From: Acidimicrobiia bacterium
Lineage (GTDB): Bacteria > Actinomycetota > Acidimicrobiia > Spongiisociales > Spongiisociaceae
DNA: 64,000 nt
Direction of reading: 5' to 3'
NCBI GenBank assembly: GCA_003229305.1
Contig: QIDH01000056.1
Coordinates: 3,777-67,776, forward strand
The position numbers and the translations under genes are program-made. Shown here one piece after another: positions 10,534-47,964 of this stretch. The notes under the pieces were generated by a model, which worked only from the letters and a program-made list of their open reading frames with translations, made no database searches and was not told where the DNA came from. The first letter of the stretch is position 1. The number at the start of each line of letters is the position of its first letter.

Positions 10534-11658
10534 ATGAGGATTGGTGTCACAAAATCGAGGCGCAAGAACGACGGACGGGTCGGAATCACACCCGATATAG
10601 CGACGCGCCTCATCAAATCCGGCCACGGCATCACAGTCGAAGCGGGAGCGGGAGCGGGAGCAGGTTTCGCGGATGATGACTACACGGCTGTCGGAGCCGA
10701 GATCGGGAATGCGTTCGAAACCGACCTGATCGTCACCAACCATCCACCCTCGGATGATGTGATCGCCAAGCTGAACGCGAGTCTGACGATTCTCGGTCTG
10801 CTGGAACCGCTAGACGACCCAAAGAGCATCGCCGCGGTCGCCACCACTGGCGCCACGGCCATAGCTTTTGAGACGCTACCGCGAATCACGAGGGCTCAGT
10901 CGATGGATGCCCTTTCGTCGCAGGCCACGTTGGCGGGTTACCAAGCGGTGTTGGAGGGAGCCGTGTTGTTGCCCAAACTGCTCCCGATGATGACCACTGC
11001 GGCGGGCACCGTCAGACCCGCCAAGGTGATTGTGCTCGGTGCTGGCGTGGCAGGGCTCCAAGCGATCGCAACCGCCAAACGCCTCGGCGCGGTAGTGCAT
11101 GCATACGACGTGCGGGTCGCGGCGGCCGAACAGGTAGAGAGCCTCGGTGCGAAATTCATCGAACTGGACCTCGAGAGCCAAGATGAGACCCAGTCTGGCG
11201 GGTACGCCAGGGAGTTGGCAGAAGACGACCAGGCTCGGCAGTTGGCGGCGCTTGGCGAACACGTGGCTACCGGCGACCTGGTCGTCACCACGGCGGCCAT
11301 TCCGGGCCGAGACGCACCCTTGCTGGTAACCGAATCAATGGTCGAAGAGATGAAGCCGGGGTCTGTGATCGTGGACGGAGCCGCGGCGACCGGTGGGAAT
11401 TGCGAGCTAACGCAGGCCGACGAGACGGTCTCGGCCCACGGCGTCACGATCATCGGACCCACCAACCTGGCTGCTCGGCTGGCCACCAACGCTTCGCAGA
11501 TGTTGGCCCGAAACGCATTCGAGCTGATCACTCATTTGAGCGACGAGGAGGCAAACCTGTCTCTAGACCCACAAGACGAGATCTCGGCGGGAGTTGTTGT
11601 GGCTTCGGGTGGATCGGTCACCAATGTGCGTGTTCTCGAACTATTGGAAAACTCATGA
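10534..11658 (+). CDS. pntAA: NAD(P) transhydrogenase alpha subunit part 1
   Basis: 374 aa. N-terminus MRIGVTKSRRKNDGRVGITPD, Rossmann motif VIVLGAGVAGLQAIATAKRLGA. Confidence 0.9.
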   Translation: MRIGVTKSRRKNDGRVGITPDIATRLIKSGHGITVEAGAGAGAGFADDDYTAVGAEIGNAFETDLIVTNHPPSDDVIAKLNASLTILGLLEPLDDPKSIAAVATTGATAIAFETLPRITRAQSMDALSSQATLAGYQAVLEGAVLLPKLLPMMTTAAGTVRPAKVIVLGAGVAGLQAIATAKRLGAVVHAYDVRVAAAEQVESLGAKFIELDLESQDETQSGGYARELAEDDQARQLAALGEHVATGDLVVTTAAIPGRDAPLLVTESMVEEMKPGSVIVDGAAATGGNCELTQADETVSAHGVTIIGPTNLAARLATNASQMLARNAFELITHLSDEEANLSLDPQDEISAGVVVASGGSVTNVRVLELLENS

Positions 11659-26747: not shown

Positions 26748-26794
26748 ACCTTAGAGGTCTGGCGCTGACAAGAGAAGGCTAGACGGGGTCTTGG

Positions 26795-27304
26795 ATGCTG
26801 CCCGCTGCTAGCGTCGAAGACGTGAGTGCCTTCACCTTTCGCAGGGCCATCGCCCTGATCGTAGTTCTCGCCGCGTGCGGAGGTTCTGCCGTGCCCTTGG
26901 CGCTCGGTGAAGAACTGCCGCCAACGTCGCCAGAGCAGATCCAAACCCTGATCGCCCAGACGGATACTCCGGTCGTTGTGAATGTTTGGGCGTCGTGGTG
27001 CATCCCATGCAGGTCAGAAGCCCCCCTGCTGGTGGCCGCCTATGAGTCTCTTGGCGACCAAATACGGTTCGTCGGGGTCGACGTCTCAGACTCGCAGCGT
27101 CCTGCCCTCGAGTTTCTGGCGGAATTCGGGATCGAATACGAAAACTACTTCGATCCCAATCGCAGCGTGCCGGCCTCACTGGGACGGCAAGGCGTACCGC
27201 TGACGTTTTTCTTCAAAACGAATGGCGAACTGAGCTACGCCCATCCAGGCGTGATCGATGAACGCACCCTGGCCCTCCGCATAGACGAACTGCTGGAGGG
27301 CTAG
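26795..27304 (+). CDS. TlpA/ResA-like thiol-disulfide oxidoreductase lipoprotein
   Basis: Lipobox VVLAAC; thioredoxin motif VVVNVWASWCIPCRSEAP. Confidence 0.75.
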   Translation: MLPAASVEDVSAFTFRRAIALIVVLAACGGSAVPLALGEELPPTSPEQIQTLIAQTDTPVVVNVWASWCIPCRSEAPLLVAAYESLGDQIRFVGVDVSDSQRPALEFLAEFGIEYENYFDPNRSVPASLGRQGVPLTFFFKTNGELSYAHPGVIDERTLALRIDELLEG

Positions 27305-28003
27305 GTGGAGTTCACACTGTTGTGGGCAGTACTGGTTGGCGTGGCCGCCCTGCTCGCGGTCTTGCGGTTCGCTCCGTTGCCAGACGCTCGCAAAGATTTA
27401 GGCGACATCGTCCTGACCGCCGCGATGATTGGTCTCCTGGTCGGCAGACTCGCTTCGATGATCGCCAACGGCGTGAACCCGATCGCCAGCCCGGGTGACA
27501 TCATCATTGTCCGCTCAGGAGTGGCCACCGGCTGGGCGACAGTCGCAGCGCTGGCATGGGCGATTTGGGCGTCGAGGCCTCGTTGGCGGCCCGCCCTCGA
27601 CAATGCGGCTCCCGCGGCCCTTATCGGACTGGCCGGCTGGCACTCTGGATGCCTTCTGAGGGAGGCTTGCCTCGGTCCCAAGACCGATCTGCCTTGGGCG
27701 ATGCGTCTGAATGGTTCGGTCGTAGGCCGCCATCCGACCGAGCTGTACGCAGCGGCACTGCTCCTGGTCACGGGAGGCCTGCTCTGGCTCCTGGTCAGAA
27801 GTCGACCCCATCTGGCTGGCACTGGACTGCCGGCCGGACTGGCCCTCGCCGCGGCAGGGGCTACACGACTGGTCACCGAGCCACTCCGCCCCTCCCTCGG
27901 CACAGGACCAGTCGCCTGGTATGCGCTAGCCATCGTGGTTGGCCTGGTCTATGGCGTCTCGCGCACGATTCGGCGCCGGACCGTCGAAACCGAAACAAGC
28001 TGA
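27305..28003 (+). CDS. Lgt-like (prolipoprotein diacylglyceryl transferase family) membrane protein
   Basis: 232 aa, polytopic. LPWAMRLNGSVVGRHPTELYAAALLL resembles the Lgt PW...HPTQLYE signature. Shorter than canonical Lgt. Confidence 0.45.
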   Translation: MEFTLLWAVLVGVAALLAVLRFAPLPDARKDLGDIVLTAAMIGLLVGRLASMIANGVNPIASPGDIIIVRSGVATGWATVAALAWAIWASRPRWRPALDNAAPAALIGLAGWHSGCLLREACLGPKTDLPWAMRLNGSVVGRHPTELYAAALLLVTGGLLWLLVRSRPHLAGTGLPAGLALAAAGATRLVTEPLRPSLGTGPVAWYALAIVVGLVYGVSRTIRRRTVETETS

Positions 28004-28030
28004 TCACCTTCCACTTCTACAATCGAACCC

Positions 28031-28684
28031 GTGCCACGCCGTAGCCCAGTAGAACTCGAGCGCGTCTCAGTGCGAAGGAATGGTTCTTTGATCCTCAAGG
28101 ATCTCGACCTCGTGGTGGAGGCGTCGGAGATCGTGGCAGTGCGAGGACCAAACGGATCCGGTAAAACCACGCTGCTTCGGCTGATATCCACGCTGCTGGC
28201 CCCGACCCGCGGATCGGCACATATCCTCGGGGTCGATGCTGCCGACCGTCAGGCAGTCCTCGGGTGCAGGCACCGCATCGCTCTGGTCGGCCATGTGCCT
28301 GCCCTCTGGCCGGAGCTGACGCTCGCAGAGAACATCTCCGTACTCCCCAACCTCCGACCCCTTGGGGCGGGGCCGATAGCCGAAGCCTTGAAAACCGTTG
28401 GGCTGGCCAAGGCAGCCGACAGGCGCGCAGACCGAGCTTCGCTCGGTATGCAGAGGCGCGTCGAGTTCGCTCGCATCCGCTTGAACCTTCCCGACGTGCT
28501 CCTGCTCGATGAAGCGCACGCCGGGCTGGATGCAGGGGCAGCCGCCCTGGTCGAGGACACCGCTCGTCTTGTGCAATCCAACGGCGGGAGCGTCATCGTG
28601 GTCTCCCACGAAGTCGCCAGGATGCAGGGGGCCTTGAGTCGCGTACTCGACCTCGTCGACGGACGGCTGGAGGCGGCGTCGTGA
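28031..28684 (+). CDS. ccmA: haem exporter ATP-binding protein CcmA
   Basis: GPNGSGKTTLLRLI Walker A, LGMQRRVEFAR signature, LLLDEAHAGLD; position at the head of ccmBCDE. Confidence 0.8.
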   Translation: MPRRSPVELERVSVRRNGSLILKDLDLVVEASEIVAVRGPNGSGKTTLLRLISTLLAPTRGSAHILGVDAADRQAVLGCRHRIALVGHVPALWPELTLAENISVLPNLRPLGAGPIAEALKTVGLAKAADRRADRASLGMQRRVEFARIRLNLPDVLLLDEAHAGLDAGAAALVEDTARLVQSNGGSVIVVSHEVARMQGALSRVLDLVDGRLEAAS

Positions 28685-39474: not shown

Positions 39475-40956
39475 TCACATACCGTCCAGTTCCGCATGGC
39501 AGCTCGCGCAGGATCGCTCCCGCCATTTCAGGACATCGTATGGATGCTCGAATTCCAGGCCACTGCCCTCGAGGTCGAGTAGCACTCCATTTGTGCCGAG
39601 GCCCTGTCCGATGATGAGGTGACACAAATTGCATTCGTTGGAGATCACCTCACCGTCCTGATCGGCTTTCTCACCATCGTGGCATCTGAAGCACCCCTCC
39701 CATGAAAGGTGCCCAATGTTGTATTGCCTGACCCGGTAGTCGGTCTTCATCTCTGGGAAGAAGTTGACGTCATAGATGTCGATCAACACTCGAGCTGCTT
39801 GCTCGATCTCCGCTGGATACCTATCGGTGGCGTCCGGGTACTCGGCCTCGTAGAAATCATCGAGTCCGTCCGGGATCCCCTGATGGGCGGCATCACGATC
39901 CTCGTAGCTGTCGAGAAGGACCTGCATGGCGATGTCCTTGATCTCGGGGAGCACATCCGGGATCCGTCCGTCGGCTAGAGCATTGTTGATCGACCGGGCA
40001 GCGGGCTCCAGCGGGTGGGCGGGCCGGTTGTGACAGTCGAGACAGTCGAAACGCCGGATTTCGGTGTCTGGGTCGTTCAGCCGAGGGATGTAGTCACCCG
40101 GAGTTGTGTAGATGCGCTCAATCCCGTCCTCGTCGATCACCCGCACCCAAGGGATGTCCTGGAGCTCGTGATCCGTGGCTATGTACTCGACGACCGTGCC
40201 GCCGCTGGTATGCCAGTGCACGCCACTGGGTGCATCTGACGCGGATCCAGCACCACCGAGATCGAAAAGGAAGTTCACCGTCCACGGGCTACTCGCATCG
40301 TCCAGGCTGTAGTACGTGGTGGTCCGTAGCTTCGTCCCCCACAAATTGTCCCTCCAGTGACACTCCTCGCACACCTGAGCTGCGGATCTCATCTCGATCG
40401 GTGTCTGCACTGGGCGATCGTACGAGTCCATCAGCACGCCCCAGAGCTGTTTCATCCCATTCACCTTGGCCTGGAGATACGCCTCGGTCCCCTGACCGAT
40501 GTGGCACTCGACGCACTTCACTCTTGCATGAGCCGACTCTTGCAGAGCCACCGCCTCAGGCTCCATTGGCGTGTGGCAGGCGTCGCCGCAGAACGACGTA
40601 GAGTCGGTTGCTTCATACGCCTTGAACCCGATGAACCCGACCACGGCCACACCGACCACGCTCAGAGAGAGGAAGAGCCATAGGCTGCGCATGTATTGCG
40701 GATCGGTCGGCTCTACTCGAAGCGTGAATCGTACCTTGTGTCCTCGCTTGCGTGCTGATACGACCTGGATGCGAATGGCAAGCAGAAAGAGGATCACACC
40801 TAGGCCGATCACCGCTGGCAGAGCGATGAACGTGATCAACGACCGGTAGGGGTTTTCTGTCTCCGCTGTGAAGTCCTGGACGACCAGGAAGACGAAGGCC
40901 ATGACGCCGGCCACGACGGTTGCGGCACCGACTGCTGCGAGCGGGTGTCGGTGCAA
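39475..40956 (-). CDS. multihaem c-type cytochrome with three N-terminal TM helices (NapC/NirT-like), 7 haem motifs
   Basis: 493 aa. CGDACH (CX3CH), CVECH, CEECH, CLDCH, CFRCH, CNLCH, CASCH. First region FCGDACHTPMEPEAVALQESAHARVKCVECHIG resembles NapC/NrfH-type quinol dehydrogenases. TTG start. Confidence 0.85.
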   Translation of the reverse strand: MHRHPLAAVGAATVVAGVMAFVFLVVQDFTAETENPYRSLITFIALPAVIGLGVILFLLAIRIQVVSARKRGHKVRFTLRVEPTDPQYMRSLWLFLSLSVVGVAVVGFIGFKAYEATDSTSFCGDACHTPMEPEAVALQESAHARVKCVECHIGQGTEAYLQAKVNGMKQLWGVLMDSYDRPVQTPIEMRSAAQVCEECHWRDNLWGTKLRTTTYYSLDDASSPWTVNFLFDLGGAGSASDAPSGVHWHTSGGTVVEYIATDHELQDIPWVRVIDEDGIERIYTTPGDYIPRLNDPDTEIRRFDCLDCHNRPAHPLEPAARSINNALADGRIPDVLPEIKDIAMQVLLDSYEDRDAAHQGIPDGLDDFYEAEYPDATDRYPAEIEQAARVLIDIYDVNFFPEMKTDYRVRQYNIGHLSWEGCFRCHDGEKADQDGEVISNECNLCHLIIGQGLGTNGVLLDLEGSGLEFEHPYDVLKWRERSCASCHAELDGM

Positions 40957-41289: not shown

Positions 41290-41784
41290 TCATCGACCAT
41301 CCTGGGGGCGGGCTCTGGCTTTGCGTACCCGACGTACCTCTGAGAGCGCCAGGAGGCCAAGTATTGCCATCGTTCCAAGTGCGAGCCTGAGTTGGGTGCC
41401 AGGTTCAAGAGGCACGGAACTTCTCTCCGTGTCGAACTCGACATACCTGCTTGGCTGGATAGCCACGATGTACTCGTCACTTGATGGAGGAATGGTCGTC
41501 TTGGGCGCCGACAGTTCGGCGAGTGCATGCACGTACTCGGCAAGAACCACTACTTGGTCCTGGTTGAGCGCGGTGGTGAACCCTGGCATGTCTCCGATAC
41601 CCAGCCGGATGATCTCCACGAGCTGGTCGTTGGCGAACGGCACGTTGATTGGCATTGCCGAGGCACCTTCACCAGGAGCACCGTGGCAGGCGGCGCAGCT
41701 CGCGGCATCGTCAGGGTTGTTGACGAACGTCTCGGTACAGCGCGGATGACGCGAGAGATCCTCAACAAGGTCTTGCCTGATCAC
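41290..41784 (-). CDS. monohaem class I cytochrome c with C-terminal TM anchor, no N-terminal signal (possibly a truncated QcrC-like remnant)
   Basis: CAACHG plus distal GDMPGF. C-terminal helix LALGTMAILGLLAL followed by RRVRKARAR. A stop lies two codons upstream of the GTG start; no export signal. Confidence 0.5.
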   Translation of the reverse strand: MIRQDLVEDLSRHPRCTETFVNNPDDAASCAACHGAPGEGASAMPINVPFANDQLVEIIRLGIGDMPGFTTALNQDQVVVLAEYVHALAELSAPKTTIPPSSDEYIVAIQPSRYVEFDTERSSVPLEPGTQLRLALGTMAILGLLALSEVRRVRKARARPQDGR

Positions 41785-41834
41785 TGGTCATTCCTGCTCA
41801 GGGAGGTGATCCTCTACTGCTTCATCATCCTGGG
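41745..41834 (+). pseudogene. 5' fragment of a cytochrome b (QcrB-type) gene
   Basis: MTREILNKVLPDHWSFLLREVILYCFIILG matches the actinobacterial QcrB N-terminus (…[24 protein letters not shown]…, from memory) in about 16 of 24 positions. Similarity then ends, and no continuation exists in any frame. Confidence 0.5.
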
Positions 41835-42187
41835 CGAAGGCGTCTTCGGCCCAGCCATAGGGGCGGGTACGGATTCTGAACAGATGTCAGACACGTGGTC
41901 CAAGCAGTGGTGTTCGCCGGCATCGGCAAGATGCCATCAATGCCGGGTGTCCTCACCGAGATACAGGTCTAGGAAGTCATCGACTATATCCGGCGGGTCC
42001 AGGGAATCGGCTGGCGAAGGCAGCAAGCAGGCGCCGGTCAGGGCGACGCGAACTCGTGTCCATCGAGAGTTCTGGCGGACAGGCTCCGGGCGAATCCACC
42101 CCCAAATGTTCTACTCCCCGTGATATGATTCGCGTCACGACTCCTACGATGTCGGGCGTGCTCGATGAGGGGGTGACGGTTGTGAAA

Positions 42188-42664
42188 ATGGGTACATGGC
42201 TGGTCCTTTCTCTGCTTCTGTTCGGTGTCACAGCGTGTTCCGATGGCTCGGCCACCGCCAACTCCCTCGCGGCTACAGACAGTGACCTGGAAGGGGTCGA
42301 GTTCATCGTGCACCAGGTACCTGGGTGAGGATGCTGCCATGGGTGGGTCGGGTACCTGCAAGAACGTGGAGCCATCATCAATCTCTCCGATGATCCGCAG
42401 TTGGATGCTTTCAAAGCGGAGCACGGCGTCCCTGAAGGCGCCGAATCCTGCCACACTGCGCTGGTCGATGGATATGTTGTCGAAGGGCACGTTCCGGCCG
42501 AGGCGATCACAAAGCTTTTGAACGAGCGTCCCGACGCCGTTGGACTCGTCCTACCTGGAATGCCTGAGGATGCGCCTGGGATGGGGGGGGACCAGGAGAC
42601 GTGGGACGCTCAACCGGTCCTGTTGATCCAGAACGACGGACAGATGGTGCCCTTCGACTTCTGA
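42188..42664 (+). CDS. CopG/DUF411-family lipoprotein with one in-frame TGA (42326-42328) at the first Cys of CxCC: selenoprotein candidate or pseudogene
   Basis: ORFs 42056..42328 and 42401..42664 share one frame. The joined product MGTWLVLSLLLFGVTAC...IVHQVPG*GCCHGWVGYL...SCHTALVDGYVVEGHVPA...LPGMPEDAPGMGG is collinear with DUF411. Confidence 0.6.
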
Positions 42665-42716
42665 TCACCGACTCTCGGCATCCCGAGACAGGCTCCCCTA
42701 GAACCGGCCGCGCCGG

Positions 42717-43178
42717 TCAAGGCGCAGTCGTCGTCGTACCAGGAGGCAGGACCGTCGTGGTCGACGAAACGGGCGCAGTCGTTGTCGTACCAGGAGGCAG
42801 GACCGTCGTGGTCGACGAAACGGGCGCAGTCGTCGTCGTACCAGGAGGCAGGACCGTCGTGGTCGACGAAACGTCGGCTTGGACGTCGTGGCAGTCGATG
42901 CACGAGGCCGGACGGGCGGCATGCTCCCCGGGTTTCGGGGCGTGGCAATCCGAGCAGGTGTTGAGGTCCGCGTGCTCGTTGTGCGAGGGAAAGTGGCACT
43001 GTGCGCAGGCTGCATCGCCCTGCGTGACGAGATCGCGGTATTCGTGGGCGCCCGGTGCCGTCGAACCTTGCTGGGGATCCGAAACCGCCATGCCGACGAC
43101 GACCGTCAGCAAAAGAAAGAGGAGAGTGCCTCCGAAGACCATACCTGCCCTCGCCCAGCGTCGTGCTTCACCCCGCAC
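42717..43178 (-). CDS. membrane-anchored trihaem c-type cytochrome with Thr/Pro-rich repeat tail
   Basis: N-terminal helix MVFGGTLLFLLLTVVVGMAV; CAQCH, CSDCH, CIDCH; C-terminus is 3 x VSSTTTVLPPGTTTTAP. Confidence 0.8.
   Translation of the reverse strand: MRGEARRWARAGMVFGGTLLFLLLTVVVGMAVSDPQQGSTAPGAHEYRDLVTQGDAACAQCHFPSHNEHADLNTCSDCHAPKPGEHAARPASCIDCHDVQADVSSTTTVLPPGTTTTAPVSSTTTVLPPGTTTTAPVSSTTTVLPPGTTTTAP
42721..42873. repeat. 3 x 51-bp tandem repeat (one mismatch, at 42782)
   Basis: ggcgcagtcgtcgtcgtaccaggaggcaggaccgtcgtggtcgacgaaacg repeated head-to-tail at 42721, 42772 and 42823. Confidence 0.95.
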
Positions 43179-43714: not shown

Positions 43715-45751
43715 ATGACCGCAATTATCGGTGCGGGCGCCGTTCTTGCTGCGTTCCTCGGATGCCTGGTTCTGGCGGTCAGAGGACTCACCGGCCTCTA
43801 CCGACCTCACACTGCGACACCAGGTCGGCTGCGGGCTCCGGTTCTTGTCATTTTGGCGGGTTCAGTCGTGTCCATGGGAGCACTGCAGGCTGCGCTCCTC
43901 GCTGACGATTTCTCGATTGCATATGTGGCCGATCACTCGGCATCCACGACGCCAACTCTCTTCAAGGTGGCATCGGCCTGGGGAGCACTTGCCGGAAGCA
44001 TCGTCCTCTGGGGCTTGGTGCTGGCGTTGTTCATCTGGACTGTATGGCGCAGTTTTCGATCTCGTGATGAAGACAACCAACTGTGGGCAGGAGCACTCGG
44101 GGTCATGGGGATCGTCAGCCTCTTCTTCTTCGGGCTGATGCTGAGTGTCTCCAATCCGTTTCAGGTGTGCACCGCACCCGCCACAGTTGGTTGCCTGCAA
44201 TCAACCGGAGCCGTGTGGACGCCGGCACAGGCCGCGCTGGAGGGTCTTGGCCCCAACCCGTTACTCCAGAACCATTTCTTGATGGCTCTCCATCCCCCAC
44301 TTCTCTACGTGGGATATGTCGGACTCACGGTCCCATTTGCCTTTGCCATGGCGGCGCTCCTGATTGGCAAGGGTGGGGCAGCCTGGCTCGAGGCGTCGCG
44401 CTCGTGGACGCTCGTGGCCTGGAGCTTCCTCGGCCTGGGGATAGTGCTCGGCGGGCTCTGGTCATACGAAGTGCTCGGCTGGGGCGGCTATTGGGCATGG
44501 GATCCGGTGGAGAATGCATCGTTCATCCCCTGGCTCGTAGCAACCGCCTTCATCCACTCCTCCGTAGTCCAGAGAAGGAGAGGCATGCTGCAAGCATGGA
44601 ACTTCGTTCTGGTGATCCTGGCTTTCGCAGCGACCATCCTGGGAACCTTCCTCACCCGCTCTGGCATCGTCAACTCGGTACACAGCTTCTCCCAATCAGC
44701 CATCGGTCCTGTGTTGCTCTGGTTCCTTGCCTTCGTCCTGGTGGTCTCGTTCAGCGTTTTCGCCGCCCGCATCAACGAGGTGTCGTCTTCGCCGCGGCTC
44801 GATTCCATGTTGAGCCGGGAGGGGTTCTTCCTTCTCAACAACCTCGCCCTGACCGTGTTCGCCTTCGTCGTAGTTCTGGGAACCCTATATCCCCTGTTTC
44901 TCGAGGCGGCCACGGGCGCCAAGGCAGGTGTCGGGGCCCCATTCTTCAATCGGTTTGCCATACCGATATCTCTGGCGCTGCTACTGACGATGGCATTCGG
45001 AACCATCGCTCCATGGAGGGCGGCGTCCCCTGCGCTGCTTTGGGAGCGGATCCGTGCTCCGATCGTCATCTCCCTGGCGGCGGGAGCACTTGCGGTTCTA
45101 ATGCGCTATCGCGATGGATACCTCGTCCTCGGCGTTGTCGCAGGCGTCCTTGTGATCACAACCGCGGTGCACAGGCTGTTCGAGACCGCCCGTCGCCGAT
45201 CTGTCAAGACCGACGAGAACATAGCCGTCGCTGCGGTCATGGTCCTTCGTGGCGATCGGCACTATTGGAGCGGACAGCTCTCTCACATCGGTGTAGCCAT
45301 CCTCGCGCTCGGCATCGCGCTTTCCTCGAACCTGGTTGTCAGCGGGACCTTCACAGTGAGGCAGTTCGAGTCTGTGGCCTTCGCCAGCATGGAACTCACA
45401 TACTTCGAGCCCGTGATCCGCCAAGAACCGAACAGAGAGATCCGTGGCGCGAGGATCGTGGTTTCTCGAGACGGGAAGATGGTCGGGGTACTCGAACCGG
45501 GGATCAACGACTACTTCATGCAAGACCAGACGATCGGCACGCCTGCGGTCGCGACTTCGTTCGGTGGCGACCTCTACTTGACCCTCGAACGGTTCGATAC
45601 GGACAGTGTCATATTCAAGGCCATCTGGTTCCCATATGTCTGGCTCGTTTGGGCGGGAGGTTTGCTGATCGGACTGGCTCCGGCGTGGGCTTGGTTGGCA
45701 CGCCGACCCTTCCGGGTCTTGAAACAAGTCGATGAGTCGGCAAGACAATGA
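43715..45751 (+). CDS. ccmF: cytochrome c haem lyase subunit CcmF (copy 2, NrfE-like paralogue)
   Basis: 678 aa, collinear with copy 1. Identical WWD block [20 protein letters not shown]. Confidence 0.9.
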   Translation: [678 protein letters not shown]

Positions 45752-46146
45752 AAAATCGGCTCTACCTCGTCTTGATCGGTGTGTTCTCGTTCATCGTCGT
45801 CATCGGCGTTTTCGCCGGTGATCCTTCCCCTCAGGACCGGGCTCAGGCCATAGGGTCGCGGATCATGTGTCCGGTCTGTCAGGGATCGGCGATTGCTGAC
45901 TCACCGTCGGAGACGGCAAGGACGATGATGGCCAAGGTCGAGGAGCTGGTCACCGACGGGTGGACGGACGACCAAGTACTCGTCTACTTTCGCGATAGAT
46001 ACGGCGAGAACATCATCCTCGACCCTGTCTTCGGTGGCAAGACCCTGCTCGTCTGGCTACTTCCGTTCGCAGCATTCGGTGTGGGTGCGTGGATGATTGT
46101 GCGCCGCAAGCGGACGATGCCATCGATCGTCAAGGACCCATCATGA
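45748..46146 (+). CDS. ccmH: CcmH (copy 2)
   Basis: ATGA overlap with ccmF2. IMCPVCQGSAI CxxC motif and C-terminal helix. Confidence 0.8.
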   Translation: MKNRLYLVLIGVFSFIVVIGVFAGDPSPQDRAQAIGSRIMCPVCQGSAIADSPSETARTMMAKVEELVTDGWTDDQVLVYFRDRYGENIILDPVFGGKTLLVWLLPFAAFGVGAWMIVRRKRTMPSIVKDPS

Positions 46147-46958
46147 GCGAGAAGCGGGCCAGAGAACGTCTCGAATACAAGCGAAGACAAGTCGCTCGGG
46201 ATATGGACGAGCTGGACGGTCAGGTTGAAGACGACCAGGTTGAGTCCGATACGGCAGAACGGCTTCGCTGGGTCTACGAAGAGGAACTGACCGACATCGA
46301 CGAAGCTCTTTCGACCATCGTCGACCCTCCGGTGAGAGAGGTGGCGCATCCGGAGGACAGCCAGCCTGTGCGGGGGTTCTCGTTTGCCCAGGTGGCAAGG
46401 GCAGGTGCCATGCTCGCGGTATTGACCGGACTCATCATCTGGGCCGGCACAGGTTCGGGAACGGACCCATCTGGCAGCGAGGACTCTTCACCTCTGGCGA
46501 CCGTGGAGGCGGGCGCGATCGACATTGGTTCGATGTCGGACGCGGAACTCGAGGACGCTCTCGCCAGTTTCCCCGAGTCCGCAGTGGTGCGTCTGGCTCT
46601 GGCCGACCGCCATCTTGCTCAGGGTGACCAACAAAGGGCTCTAGAACACTACCTGGTTGTCGTCACCGGAGAGGCATCGCCACAAGACAAGAGCCGGGCT
46701 CTTGCGAGAGTTGGCTACCTGTCATACGCCACGGGCCAGCATAAGTCGGCGAGGGAAACTCTGCTGGAGAGCCTCTATCTGGACGAGGACAACACCGAGG
46801 CAATGCTCTACCTGGGATATGTCCTCTTGAACGGTTTTGGGGATGAGGCTGCAGCCATCCCCTACTTCGAGAGAGTCATAGCTGATCCGTCCATGCCTCC
46901 CGAGGTGGTGGAGGCGGTATCCGCTGTCGTGGCCAATGCTCGAGGAGGACAGGGATGA
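46143..46958 (+). CDS. CcmI/CycH-like TPR protein (copy 2)
   Basis: ATG 46143 overlaps the ccmH2 stop. Same coiled-coil / TM / TPR layout as copy 1. Confidence 0.55.
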   Translation: MSEKRARERLEYKRRQVARDMDELDGQVEDDQVESDTAERLRWVYEEELTDIDEALSTIVDPPVREVAHPEDSQPVRGFSFAQVARAGAMLAVLTGLIIWAGTGSGTDPSGSEDSSPLATVEAGAIDIGSMSDAELEDALASFPESAVVRLALADRHLAQGDQQRALEHYLVVVTGEASPQDKSRALARVGYLSYATGQHKSARETLLESLYLDEDNTEAMLYLGYVLLNGFGDEAAAIPYFERVIADPSMPPEVVEAVSAVVANARGGQG

Positions 46959-47530
46959 TCAAGCGTTCATCTGATCTACAGCCAAGACGTGGCAGGCTTC
47001 GCACCTGGATCGCCATCGGCCTCATTGCCGGTGTGGTTGGGACAATGGTCATCGTATTCGCCGGCCGCTTCGGGATGGACGTGAGACTCGTTGCCTCTCC
47101 GTTGGTTGGCCGTCAGGCTCCTTCCCTCGAGTTCGACTATCTGGACCGACCCGGAACGCTCGACACCGACGACCTCAACGGTCAGGTGGTCGTCATGAAC
47201 TTCTGGGCGTCATGGTGCCTTGCCTGTCGCGTCGAACATCCCATTCTGATGGCGGCCTCTGAGAAGTACGCCGACCAAGGGGTCCGATTCATAGGTGTGC
47301 AGCATCAAGACCTGGTCAACTCGGGAAAGGCCTTCCTCGATGAGCTCGGATGGGGCGTGAACTTCGACTATGTGATCGGAGACGGTTCAGGAGCCGCGAT
47401 TGAGTACGGCATATACGGCATCCCTGAGACGTTCGTCATCGACGCCAACGGGACAATCACAATGAAGATCACCGGGCCAGTGACAACCAAGTCGCTCGGT
47501 ACGGCCATTGAGGCCGCTCTCGTCGGGTAA
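46955..47530 (+). CDS. ccmG: CcmG/DsbE thiol:disulfide interchange protein (copy 2)
   Basis: ATGA overlap; VVVMNFWASWCLACRVEHP; GIYGIPETFVI. Confidence 0.8.
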   Translation: MIKRSSDLQPRRGRLRTWIAIGLIAGVVGTMVIVFAGRFGMDVRLVASPLVGRQAPSLEFDYLDRPGTLDTDDLNGQVVVMNFWASWCLACRVEHPILMAASEKYADQGVRFIGVQHQDLVNSGKAFLDELGWGVNFDYVIGDGSGAAIEYGIYGIPETFVIDANGTITMKITGPVTTKSLGTAIEAALVG

Positions 47531-47584: not shown

Positions 47585-47951
47585 GACGAGTTCACTGGGC
47601 GACCGCGGCTGGTTTCAGTCGAGGAAAGTCCGGACTCCCAAGGGCATGGAGCTGGGTAACACCCAGGCGGGGCGACCCGACGGAAAGTGCCACAGAAACC
47701 AGACCGCCGATGGCCTTCGGGCACAGGCAAGGGTGAAACGGTGGTGTAAGAGACCACCAGCATCTCGGGTGACCGATGTGGCTGGTAAACCCCTCCAGGA
47801 GCAAGGCCAAACAGGGACATCGGCGGCCCGCCGATCAAGTCCCGGGTAGGCCGCACCGAGGTCGAGCGGCAACGCCGGCCCCAGATGGATGGTCGCTGCC
47901 TGTCGAGCATCGCTCGGCAGGTACAGAATCCGGCTTACAGGTGAACTCGTC
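47585..47951 (+). ncRNA. rnpB: RNase P RNA, bacterial type A
   Basis: Universal blocks GAGGAAAGTCCGG, ACAGAAACCAGACCGCC, AGGGTGAAACGGTG, GTAAGAG.CACCAG, CCGGGTAGGC and ACAGAATCCGGCTTA. The 5' end GACGAGTTCAC pairs with the 3' end GTGAACTCGTC (P1). Confidence 0.92.
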
Positions 47952-47964
47952 GCGCCTGTCAGGA

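Follow-up and report, generated by a model that had tools for sequence, protein, structure and literature searches.

A TGA codon at positions 42326-42328 interrupts what otherwise reads as a single gene in the 64-kb window, i.e., the whole stretch of DNA analyzed here, which comes from a 68-kb metagenome contig, and the question is whether this codon ends translation or is decoded as selenocysteine (Sec). The original prediction held that the ORFs 42056-42328 and 42401-42664 share one frame, that reading through the TGA yields a 158-residue DUF411/CopG lipoprotein, and that the gene is either a selenoprotein gene or a recent pseudogene. As outlined below, comparison with relatives makes it very probable that the product of this gene is a CopG (DUF411) lipoprotein with a selenocysteine. 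The first half of the original choice is supported by conservation of the TGA and of a hairpin behind it, and the pseudogene half is rejected.

A lipoprotein gene with an in-frame TGA

An ORF check established that the two ORFs are in the same frame. Translation of 42188-42664 on the plus strand, on which all features described here are located, gives 158 codons and the terminal TGA at 42662-42664, and the TGA at 42326-42328 is the sole internal stop in this interval (context ...EFIVHQVPG, the stop, and GCCHGWVGYLQERG...). Elsewhere in the window TGA serves as an ordinary stop, and it also terminates this gene itself; there is therefore no genome-wide recoding of this codon. The product would be 158 aa long when translation starts at the ATG at 42188, and 160 aa when it starts at the GTG at 42182. 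A putative Shine-Dalgarno-like GAGGGGG, read from the sequence at 42167-42173, is located 8 nt from the GTG and 14 nt from the ATG. A start at the GTG would generate MKMGTW..., with a positive n-region typical of signal peptides. No promoter-like or terminator-like sites were seen within 41700-42900.

The sequence predicts export, as positions 42188-42238 encode a putative lipoprotein signal peptide, MGTWLVLSLLLFGVTAC, with a lipobox VTA-C and the lipobox cysteine, Cys17, at codon 42236-42238. Related genes with a TGA at the same site, hereafter Sec forms, likewise contain lipobox or twin-arginine (Tat) signal peptides, in frame and 5' of the TGA.

Relation to the copper protein CopG

When the stop was replaced by Cys, the read-through protein matched Pfam PF04214 (DUF411) with an E-value of 1.9e-24 and 85.6 bits (gathering cutoff 27), and Pseudomonas aeruginosa CopG (PDB 6WIS/6WJE) with an E-value of 6.7e-23 (phmmer) over residues 39-152, so that translation and database matches agree with the predicted 158-residue family member. 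CopG is a thioredoxin-like protein of copper resistance that resides in the periplasm and contains a tetranuclear Cu cluster bridged by cysteine (Hausrath et al. 2020, as summarized in PMC7558416). The same review states that CopG holds this Cu4 cluster by its CxCC motif together with a pair of adjacent Met residues. Alignment to the PDB entries places the stop opposite the first C of the N-C-G-C-C sequence of CopG, exactly where it had been expected. The UGA thus takes the first position, residue 47, of a U-G-C-C (CxCC) motif at 42326-42337, and both CopG and 55 homologues have a Cys at the aligned position. The other two Cys of the motif (C49 and C50) are present, and CxCC would be complete provided that the UGA specifies either Sec or Cys.

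The other ligand-type residues are all intact in the window protein, every family-invariant residue is present, and the gene is complete over 42188-42664. In our alignment of homologues (A1), the S-C-H-T motif at 42446-42457, with C88 (codon 42449-42451) and H89, and the E-G-H-V-P motif at 42482-42496, with H101 (codon 42488-42490), are invariant, and so are the two Met residues, M125 (42560-42562) and M132 (42581-42583), of the P-G-M-P-x-D-x-P-G-M-G-G segment at 42554-42589. The fold was assessed on an AlphaFold model of P0001, a Cys form that is 65% identical to the window protein (pLDDT 84). The best PDB matches of this model were 6WIS/6WJE (target-normalised TM 0.80-0.83, with TM 0.83 and rmsd 2.3 A for CopG 6WIS), followed by thioredoxins and glutaredoxins, and its first Cys sits between beta1 and alpha1. 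Judged on P0001, the window protein is therefore predicted to have a thioredoxin-like fold that can be superposed on CopG.

With P. aeruginosa CopG, the window protein shares the CxCC, SCHT, EGHVP and PGMPxxxPGM motifs, predicted export and, from the P0001 model, the fold. It differs in that the first Cys of CxCC is UGA-encoded, putatively as Sec, and in being a predicted lipoprotein from a probable member of the Acidimicrobiia, whereas CopG is a soluble periplasmic protein of a Gram-negative bacterium. Moreover, the gene lies outside any cop/cus/cue operon, and its relatives occur in unrelated contexts.

TGA and Cys codons across relatives

The original prediction had proposed to align orthologous genes and to look for conservation of the TGA and the hairpin or replacement by TGC/TGT. 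We compared 80 related genome loci, picked by protein similarity. A stop is present at the same codon in 24 of these, or 25 with the window included, and it is TGA in every case and never TAA or TAG, which is far beyond chance. The remaining 55 sites carry a Cys codon (42 TGC and 13 TGT), giving the Sec/Cys pairing at one codon that is expected of a selenoprotein family. The TGA forms come from metagenome-assembled genomes of Acidimicrobiia, Vicinamibacterales and Rokubacteria, i.e., three phyla. In a neighbor-joining tree, 22 Sec forms of Acidimicrobiia form a clade in which two Cys forms (L002 and L017, both TGT) are nested, while the Vicinamibacterales Sec clade and the Rokubacteria Sec form L032 are nested separately among Cys forms. 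Sequences with the TGA form include the Vicinamibacterales chromosome OY760734.1, CBDBMZ010000003.1, CBDEVO010000003.1, ERZ25039524:contig_1805, Microthrixaceae JAWKIF01 and Acidimicrobiia GCA_029863625.1, while the Cys forms L002 and L017 belong to JASJXX01 and JBDSDH01. In addition, a DNA pattern designed for the Sec form was matched by at least 120 contigs from metagenomes; 80 of these were inspected, and each contains an in-frame signal peptide, the U position, GCC and the DUF411 domain.

A SECIS-like hairpin behind the TGA

The original prediction had named two structures around the TGA. The first, an 11-bp inverted repeat (42314-42324 with 42348-42358), is indeed present in the minimum free energy (MFE) fold, but it is specific to the window: in the 25 Sec forms, 55% of its cells can pair, which equals the shuffle mean, and covariation was not found, so that we discarded it as a SECIS. 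The second, a 6-pair hairpin starting 15 nt past the TGA, turned out to be the conserved structure. Its stem is formed by GUGGGU and ACCUGC (42343-42348 with 42354-42359) and its loop by CGGGU (42349-42353). The distance from UGA to loop is 20 nt in the window and 17-21 nt across the 25 Sec forms. The register of the hairpin is identical in all Acidimicrobiia Sec forms, with lineage-specific versions in Vicinamibacterales and Rokubacteria, and there are compensatory changes, in which G-C becomes C-G (columns 30/46) or A-U (columns 30/42). Synonymous divergence is also reduced directly 3' of the TGA (pS 0.45 versus 0.63).

The published bSECIS model (PMC13188914) requires a loop of 3-9 nt, a stem of 4-16 bp, a G in the first two loop positions, a spacing of 16-37 nt and an MFE of at most -7.5 kcal/mol. 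All 25 Sec forms agree with this model, which is loose, as such a hairpin is also found in 10 of the 47 Cys forms; for the window the values are 6 bp, 20 nt and a constrained MFE of -17.6 kcal/mol over the 69 nt past the UGA. Thus, judged by sequence, a bSECIS stem-loop is probably present. Hairpins of -4 kcal/mol or lower occur in 23 of the 25 Sec forms versus 10 of the 47 Cys forms (Fisher p 4.6e-9, phylogeny ignored), and the MFE is lower in Sec than in Cys forms (Mann-Whitney p 0.002), although the compared sequences are related and these statistics overstate their independence.

The window hairpin itself is weak. The mini-stem alone has an energy of -4.1 kcal/mol, and a 33-nt segment folds at -5.8 kcal/mol with a z-score of +0.8. 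Since folds of the window region were no more stable than those of shuffled sequences when folded singly, the case for a SECIS rests on the comparative data. The hairpin also overlaps the conserved codons W-V-x-Y/H-L, and part of its conservation will therefore reflect protein constraint. A scan of the window against Rfam at the gathering thresholds returned RNase P RNA only and no SECIS family.

Like the E. coli fdhF and fdnG SECIS elements and the bSECISearch consensus, the window element is a stem-loop that lies within the coding sequence just 3' of the UGA, with G in the first two loop positions within CGGGU and a spacing in the 17-21 nt range. The E. coli fdhF SECIS has a GGUC loop, which the hairpin loop GGUCUYR of the Vicinamibacterales resembles. 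Compared to the E. coli elements, the window hairpin is far shorter and weaker (6 bp, -4 kcal/mol), and we consider it a candidate SelB site.

Selenocysteine machinery and decoding of the TGA

In line with the original prediction, selA, selB, selD and tRNA-Sec were not found in the 64-kb window. Nor were they found in approximately 1.9 Mb of flanking DNA around related loci, with one exception: ARAGORN, when run on the window, the 24 Sec-form loci and all 204 loci, detected a tRNA-Sec solely in L035, where it adjoins a Cys form. Scans of six-frame translations for the SelA (GDKLLGGPQ), SelD (G[C/U]GCK) and SelB (GHVDHGK) motifs gave nothing real. In the class Acidimicrobiia, selA, selB, selC and selD are encoded in 84 of 84 complete Actinomarina genomes (bioRxiv 10.64898/2026.04.03.716425), suggesting, at the level of the class, that Acidimicrobiia can use Sec. 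A second selenoprotein gene was not found in the window; a GC3-based screen for in-frame TGAs with nearby Cys residues, covering the window and all loci, returned antisense shadows and the DUF411 sites only. The same-frame ORF pairs 27305-28003/28004-28684 and 11711-13324/13325-13705 were considered as well and are merely adjacent genes.

The lack of Sec genes in the window and flanks would also fit decoding of the UGA as another amino acid, either Cys, carried by a tRNA(Sec)-like tRNA and delivered via SelB, or Trp, by low-level near-cognate read-through, giving a normal Cys-CopG or a W47 variant, respectively. There is reportedly a precedent for the former, as Mukai et al. are said to have described natural UGA-to-Cys recoding by allo-tRNAs in 2017. 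Yet the combination of a SECIS-type hairpin, a strict TGA and the distribution of Sec and Cys forms is the standard signature of a selenoprotein, and a Trp at the position of a metal-ligand Cys would wreck the site. Moreover, the repeated TGA to TGT reversions in L002 and L017 indicate that these genes can readily switch to an ordinary Cys codon, and retention of the TGA therefore implies a benefit beyond that of Cys. We therefore regard non-Sec decoding as unlikely, and insertion of Sec as by far the better reading.

Gene calls, selection and gene neighborhood

Gene-calling programs suggest another possibility, namely that the TGA terminates translation, which then resumes further on, for example at the TTG at 42401. 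The products would be a short N-terminal peptide that is secreted and a C-terminal DUF411 fragment that stays in the cytoplasm. Such a split corresponds to the existing annotation: in most relatives the callers give C-terminal ORFs of 87-104 aa, in L082 an upstream ORF of 59 aa is called separately, and 100 of the 120 best-matching database protein clusters are truncated gene calls of 87-123 aa that begin just past the motif. Two such truncated calls, L081 and L082, were inspected at the DNA level, and both have the TGA. However, the internal 'start' is nothing but the nearest NTG past the stop, and it varies between relatives, giving products of 87, 93, 95, 102 and 104 aa. The fragment would have neither a signal peptide nor CxCC, the motif by which the copper site is defined. 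Conservation at the protein level covers the GCC residues and the sequence from the TGA up to these starts. A split gene is thus very improbable.

A recent pseudogene, in which one substitution of TGC or TGT to TGA inactivated the CopG gene of this organism, is more improbable still. Such a change needs only a single step, and within the window alone, where sel genes were not found, a Sec codon and a pseudogene look the same. However, the same TGA recurs in 24 further genomes, which span three phyla, and in the metagenome contigs mentioned above, and this conservation refutes the pseudogene. Although synonymous sites are near saturation among the compared genes, pN/pS is 0.44 for the 13 codons 5' of the TGA, and 0.48 and 0.34 3' of it, indicating that purifying selection acts on the upstream codons much as it does on the downstream ones. 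The TGA-form genes contain no frameshifts or further stops. Coding conservation on both sides of a conserved UGA is what a Sec codon would be expected to leave. Finally, a sequencing or assembly error at 42326-42328, for which nothing speaks beyond the metagenomic origin of the assembly, is next to negligible. The identical feature recurs in assemblies made independently, in many projects and with many technologies.

The original prediction had also seen gene decay in the adjacent DNA, which was mistaken, as the neighboring genes are intact. The window gene is located among c-type cytochrome and Ccm genes. The neighborhoods of four Sec forms (L081, L082, L029 and L032) contained neither a conserved context nor copper genes, and the loci examined showed no consistent association with cop/cus/cue genes.

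DISCUSSION

The sequence comparisons described above suggest that the window gene is almost certainly an uncatalogued, widespread selenoprotein version of CopG. PF04214/DUF411/CopG is absent from the 2026 inventory of 119 prokaryotic selenoprotein families (Table 1, PMC13188914), and from deep-Sep, BSepDB, the GOS paper and full-text literature searches. A search of NCBIfam release 20.0, selenoprotein models such as NF041383 ('VPGUxxT thioredoxin-like') included, gave no family at E <= 0.01. Because the family is missing from both the 2026 inventory and NCBIfam, its members are consistently mislabeled in annotation as a truncated 'DUF411 domain-containing protein'.

Two groups of selenoproteins are comparable. 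The thioredoxin-fold UxxC selenoproteins comprise Sec-thioredoxin, glutaredoxin, DsbA-like, TlpA 'UGC' and Prx-like thiol:disulfide oxidoreductases (Table 1, PMC13188914). As in these, the putative Sec occupies the N-terminal CxxC-equivalent position (U-G-C-C) between beta1 and alpha1 of a thioredoxin-like fold, Cys homologues are widespread, and the bSECIS follows immediately downstream. Unlike them, the window motif would be part of a metal-cluster ligand set (CxCC plus Cys, His and Met) and not a simple dithiol redox pair. The predicted metal-handling selenoproteins include a P-type cation ATPase (UxxC), a CopZ-family (2Fe-2S)-binding protein, the SO_0444 Cu/Zn efflux protein (UxC) and MerT/HgcA/Sao, and Sec may serve as a metal ligand (PMC13188914). 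The window protein resembles these in having a putative Sec in place of a metal-ligand Cys in an extracytoplasmic or metal-trafficking protein, whereas the folds and families are unrelated and none has a CopG-type multinuclear copper cluster.

We propose that when the ribosome meets the UGA at 42326-42328, the hairpin at 42343-42359 would act as a bacterial SECIS and recruit SelB-GTP-Sec-tRNA(Sec), so that Sec is inserted and translation continues to the stop at 42662-42664. The pre-protein would be exported by means of its N-terminal signal peptide and lipidated at Cys17, which would leave the mature thioredoxin-like domain on the outer face of the cytoplasmic membrane. The copper site would then consist of U47-G-C49-C50 together with C88/H89, H101 and M125/M132, the counterpart of the site that holds the cysteine-bridged Cu4 cluster in P. 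aeruginosa CopG. U47 would take the place of the N-terminal (attacking) Cys of the thioredoxin CxxC motif, in the loop that joins strand beta1 to helix alpha1, where a selenolate would be a softer, more nucleophilic ligand or redox center with a lower pKa. We infer that it may serve either Cu(I)/Cu(II) interconversion or copper hand-over. More tentatively, and with slightly more doubt than confidence, we suggest that the selenolate of Sec47 might directly coordinate a multinuclear copper cluster of the CopG type. This would be a natural Cu-Se metallocluster at the cell surface, selected independently in at least three bacterial phyla and each time at the same residue, and it would mark the first Cys of CxCC as decisive for the chemistry of CopG.

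The mechanism of CopG is unsettled, as the protein may be a copper oxidoreductase or a chaperone. The putative Sec is found repeatedly at the first CxCC position, and only there, which points to this as the reactive residue, and the family would provide a ready-made Sec/Cys pair for CopG biochemistry. Should the protein assemble the same kind of cluster as its P. aeruginosa counterpart, the result would be a copper-selenolate cluster of natural origin, relevant to bioinorganic chemistry. The finding would add a widespread family to the prokaryotic selenoproteome and would indirectly flag lineages of the Acidimicrobiia, Vicinamibacterales and Rokubacteria as users of Sec. In these abundant and little-studied inhabitants of soil, freshwater and the sea, the use of selenium would be tied to the handling of copper.

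An in-frame TGA at the first cysteine of a DUF411/CopG gene

Translation of the gene at 42188-42664 (+) gave a single open frame of 158 codons that ends at TGA 42662-42664 and has TGA 42326-42328 as its sole internal stop, flanked by the residues ...LEGVEFIVHQVPG-*-GCCHGWVGYLQERG...; as originally predicted, ORFs 42056-42328 and 42401-42664 share this frame. With the stop replaced with Cys, the protein matched Pfam PF04214 (DUF411) at E 1.9e-24 and P. aeruginosa CopG (PDB 6WIS/6WJE), the only DUF411 member with a solved structure, at E 6.7e-23, and the stop aligned with the first Cys of N-C-G-C-C in the latter. CopG is thioredoxin-like and binds a tetranuclear copper cluster via CxCC and two Met residues (PMC7558416). 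All of these residues are present in the window protein, the first Cys position being UGA. The AlphaFold model (pLDDT 84) of a Cys form, a homologue with TGC or TGT at this codon, that is 65% identical to the window protein superposes on 6WIS with a target-normalised TM of 0.83, and its first Cys is located in the beta1-alpha1 loop; therefore, U-G-C-C counts as UxxC, an arrangement typical of selenoproteins with a thioredoxin fold. Its profile match, motifs and fold make the window protein a DUF411/CopG member, and reading, translation and profile match agree with the predicted position of the TGA at the first Cys of CxCC. The N-terminus MGTWLVLSLLLFGVTAC contains a lipobox, and GTG 42182, 8 nt 3' of GAGGGGG, may be the real start.

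Conservation of the TGA

A search of a 5.8-billion-protein database showed that only 20 of the best 120 clusters have full length, at 149-205 aa, and that every one of these contains C-G-C-C; the other 100, including the window's own 87-aa ORF, are 87-123 aa long and begin at whichever NTG comes after the motif. The record for that ORF is from a 68-kb JGI contig, which makes the window metagenomic. Related loci (80) were picked from a one-genome-per-species collection for protein similarity to motifs conserved at the C-terminus, and were translated upstream of the SCHT...EGHVP anchor. In 24 of them, as in the window, the frame extends over a conserved strand (e.g. GVxFxVHRDPG or VYKSPT) and on into a signal peptide, and the only interruption in those 24 is a stop at the first-Cys position. 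This stop is TGA in all 25 sequences (Sec forms), and 55 of the other loci carry TGC (42) or TGT (13). The 24 TGA loci come from Acidimicrobiia/Actinomycetota MAGs (16), Vicinamibacterales (Acidobacteriota; 7) and a Rokubacteria genome (1), and TGA was also present in two more truncated database proteins checked at the DNA level (L081 and L082). At least 120 metagenome contigs match the Sec-form DNA pattern CCNNNNTGARGNTGYTGYNNNNNNTGGGTNNNNNANCT, and all 80 examined encode signal peptide, U, GCC and DUF411 in frame, many with a twin-arginine signal. Most non-actinobacterial Sec forms among these contigs (L084-L163) have Tat signal peptides and not lipoboxes (e.g. L088, L092, L094 and L117). 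The predicted export signals of Sec forms are thus of both lipobox and Tat type.

In a neighbour-joining tree, the Acidimicrobiia clade holds 22 Sec forms, and a Sec clade of Vicinamibacterales and the Sec form from Rokubacteria are placed separately among Cys forms. This separate nesting indicates at least three Sec lineages, which would have arisen through independent conversion or transfer. Since they are nested in the Acidimicrobiia Sec clade, two TGT Cys forms, L002 (JASJXX010000058.1) and L017 (JBDSDH010000249.1), look like recent Sec-to-Cys reversions, in which case they are natural controls; L002 retains five of the six hairpin pairs described below. The same clade contains a Sec-DUF411 61% identical to the window protein from a MAG labelled Gemmatimonadales (L001, CAXMRC010000136.1), a placement that points to misbinning or horizontal transfer.

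A conserved hairpin downstream of the UGA

Both RNA structures named in the original prediction, an 11-bp inverted repeat (42314-42324 with 42348-42358) and an alternative 6-pair hairpin (42343-42348 with 42354-42359, +), are present in the window. The inverted repeat is not conserved, as 55% of cells pair, which equals the shuffle mean, and there is no covariation. The hairpin occurs at the same place in the MFE folds of nearly all TGA forms. Comparative folding gave an Acidimicrobiia type, to which the window copy belongs (stem GUGGGU/ACCYRC, loop CGKGU, 20 nt 3' of the UGA), a Vicinamibacterales type (7 bp, loop GGUCUYR, 17 nt 3' of the UGA), and a Rokubacteria type (10 bp, loop GGG). On the alignment of the 25 Sec forms, either register pairs 74-77% of cells versus 30-60% for slid controls, and compensatory changes were found in columns 30/46 (G-C to C-G) and 30/42 (G-C to A-U). 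The hairpin coincides with conserved W-V-x-Y/H-L codons, and some of its conservation is therefore due to the protein. The published model of the bacterial SECIS, the hairpin 3' of the UGA that directs Sec insertion, specifies a loop of 3-9 nt, a stem of 4-16 bp, G in the first two loop positions, a UGA spacing of 16-37 nt, and an MFE no higher than -7.5 kcal/mol (PMC13188914); coded as a test, these constraints were passed by 25/25 Sec forms. Hairpins at least as stable as -4 kcal/mol were present in 23/25 Sec forms versus 10/47 distinct Cys forms (Fisher p 4.6e-9, uncorrected for relatedness), and the segment MFE was lower in Sec than in Cys forms (Mann-Whitney p 0.002). The window hairpin is among the weakest copies, and folding the window sequence alone was uninformative (z -0.4 and +1.1). 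Most non-actinobacterial Sec forms among contigs L084-L163 have a hairpin of 7-10 bp with a 3-nt loop, and because the search pattern fixes four core pairs, these contigs are not independent evidence for the stem.

Selection and alternative explanations

Nei-Gojobori counts on 17 Acidimicrobiia Sec forms gave a pN/pS of 0.44 over the 13 codons upstream of the TGA, and 0.48 and 0.34 downstream, with pS (~0.63) near saturation. Over the 13 codons that follow the UGA (42329-42367 in the window, and 16 relatives) pS was 0.45 versus 0.63 upstream or further downstream, which is consistent with an RNA-structure constraint laid over the coding sequence. We consider it very likely that the hairpin at 42343-42359 directs SelB-dependent selenocysteine insertion at UGA 42326-42328, and that the read-through product would be a full-length exported lipoprotein. 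That the UGA is decoded, but not as Sec, is improbable. TGA is the usual terminator of most window genes, the Sec-CopG gene included, which rules out genome-wide reassignment. The purifying selection that acts both before and after a TGA conserved in old, diverged genes leaves very little room for a split gene, still less for the recent pseudogene considered originally, and least for a sequencing or assembly error, and on these grounds we regard all three as ruled out.

tRNA-Sec, selA, selB and selD were absent from the window and from ~1.9 Mb of fetched flanks, bar one tRNA-Sec (anticodon TCA; 10797-10890, -) ~5.5 kb from the Cys-form DUF411 gene of a Chloroflexota MAG (L035, JBCDFA010000056.1). 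A search of the window and fetched loci found no second selenoprotein candidate. In Acidimicrobiia, selA/B/C/D are encoded in 84/84 complete Actinomarina genomes (2026 preprint, bioRxiv 10.64898/2026.04.03.716425).

Genomic surroundings

The gene decay initially suspected in the adjacent DNA was not found. On the minus strand, the intact neighbours encode a multihaem cytochrome of NapC/NirT type (39475-40956), a cytochrome c (41290-41784), and a small lipoprotein of 153 aa with three CxxCH haem motifs and no Pfam match (42717-43178); the genes for CcmF (43715-45751), CcmH (45745-46146) and a redoxin resembling TlpA (46955-47530) are intact as well. The impression of decay probably came from a 51-nt unit repeated three times in tandem (42721-42873; copies 98% identical), which encodes the Thr/Pro-rich linker (TTTVLPPGTTTTAPVSS x3) of the small lipoprotein. 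System I cytochrome c maturation genes at 26783-28684 and 43715-47530 (CcmF, CcmH, two TlpA/ResA-like redoxins, and a CcmA-like ABC ATPase) enclose several c-type cytochrome genes, and the genome looks Acidimicrobiia. A full-length bacterial class A RNase P RNA is located at 47587-47953 (+; 286 bits). The Sec-CopG gene lies in the middle of the cytochrome c maturation cluster, a linkage not observed among relatives: other Sec forms neighbour P450, helicase, acyltransferase or NUDIX genes, so context is not conserved, and no adjoining cop/cus genes were found in the neighbourhoods examined.

A probable selenocysteine variant of CopG

By every sequence-based criterion, the window gene qualifies as a predicted bacterial selenoprotein. 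The window protein had no match in NCBIfam release 20.0, whose curated selenoprotein models include the VPGUxxT family (NF041383). PF04214, DUF411 and CopG are absent from a 2026 inventory (PMC13188914) that lists 119 selenoprotein families of prokaryotes and through which Haft 2023 and 2025 were covered, and from the GOS, deep-Sep and BSepDB papers. Full-text literature searches that paired DUF411 with selenoprotein and CopG with selenocysteine returned nothing relevant. Sec CopG is therefore outside all catalogued selenoprotein families. It very probably represents a new selenocysteine version of an established copper protein, and its decoding mechanism would be one already known; to selenoprotein specialists it is no conceptual surprise. 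The role proposed for CopG is the oxidation of Cu(I) to Cu(II) or the handing of copper to cuproproteins (PMC7558416). Sec47, the residue at the UGA, would be the reactive or ligating residue, whose selenolate may aid copper redox chemistry or withstand over-oxidation. Sec CopG is widespread, systematically mis-annotated (NCBI lists Sec forms as a truncated 'DUF411 domain-containing protein'), and informative on CopG chemistry.
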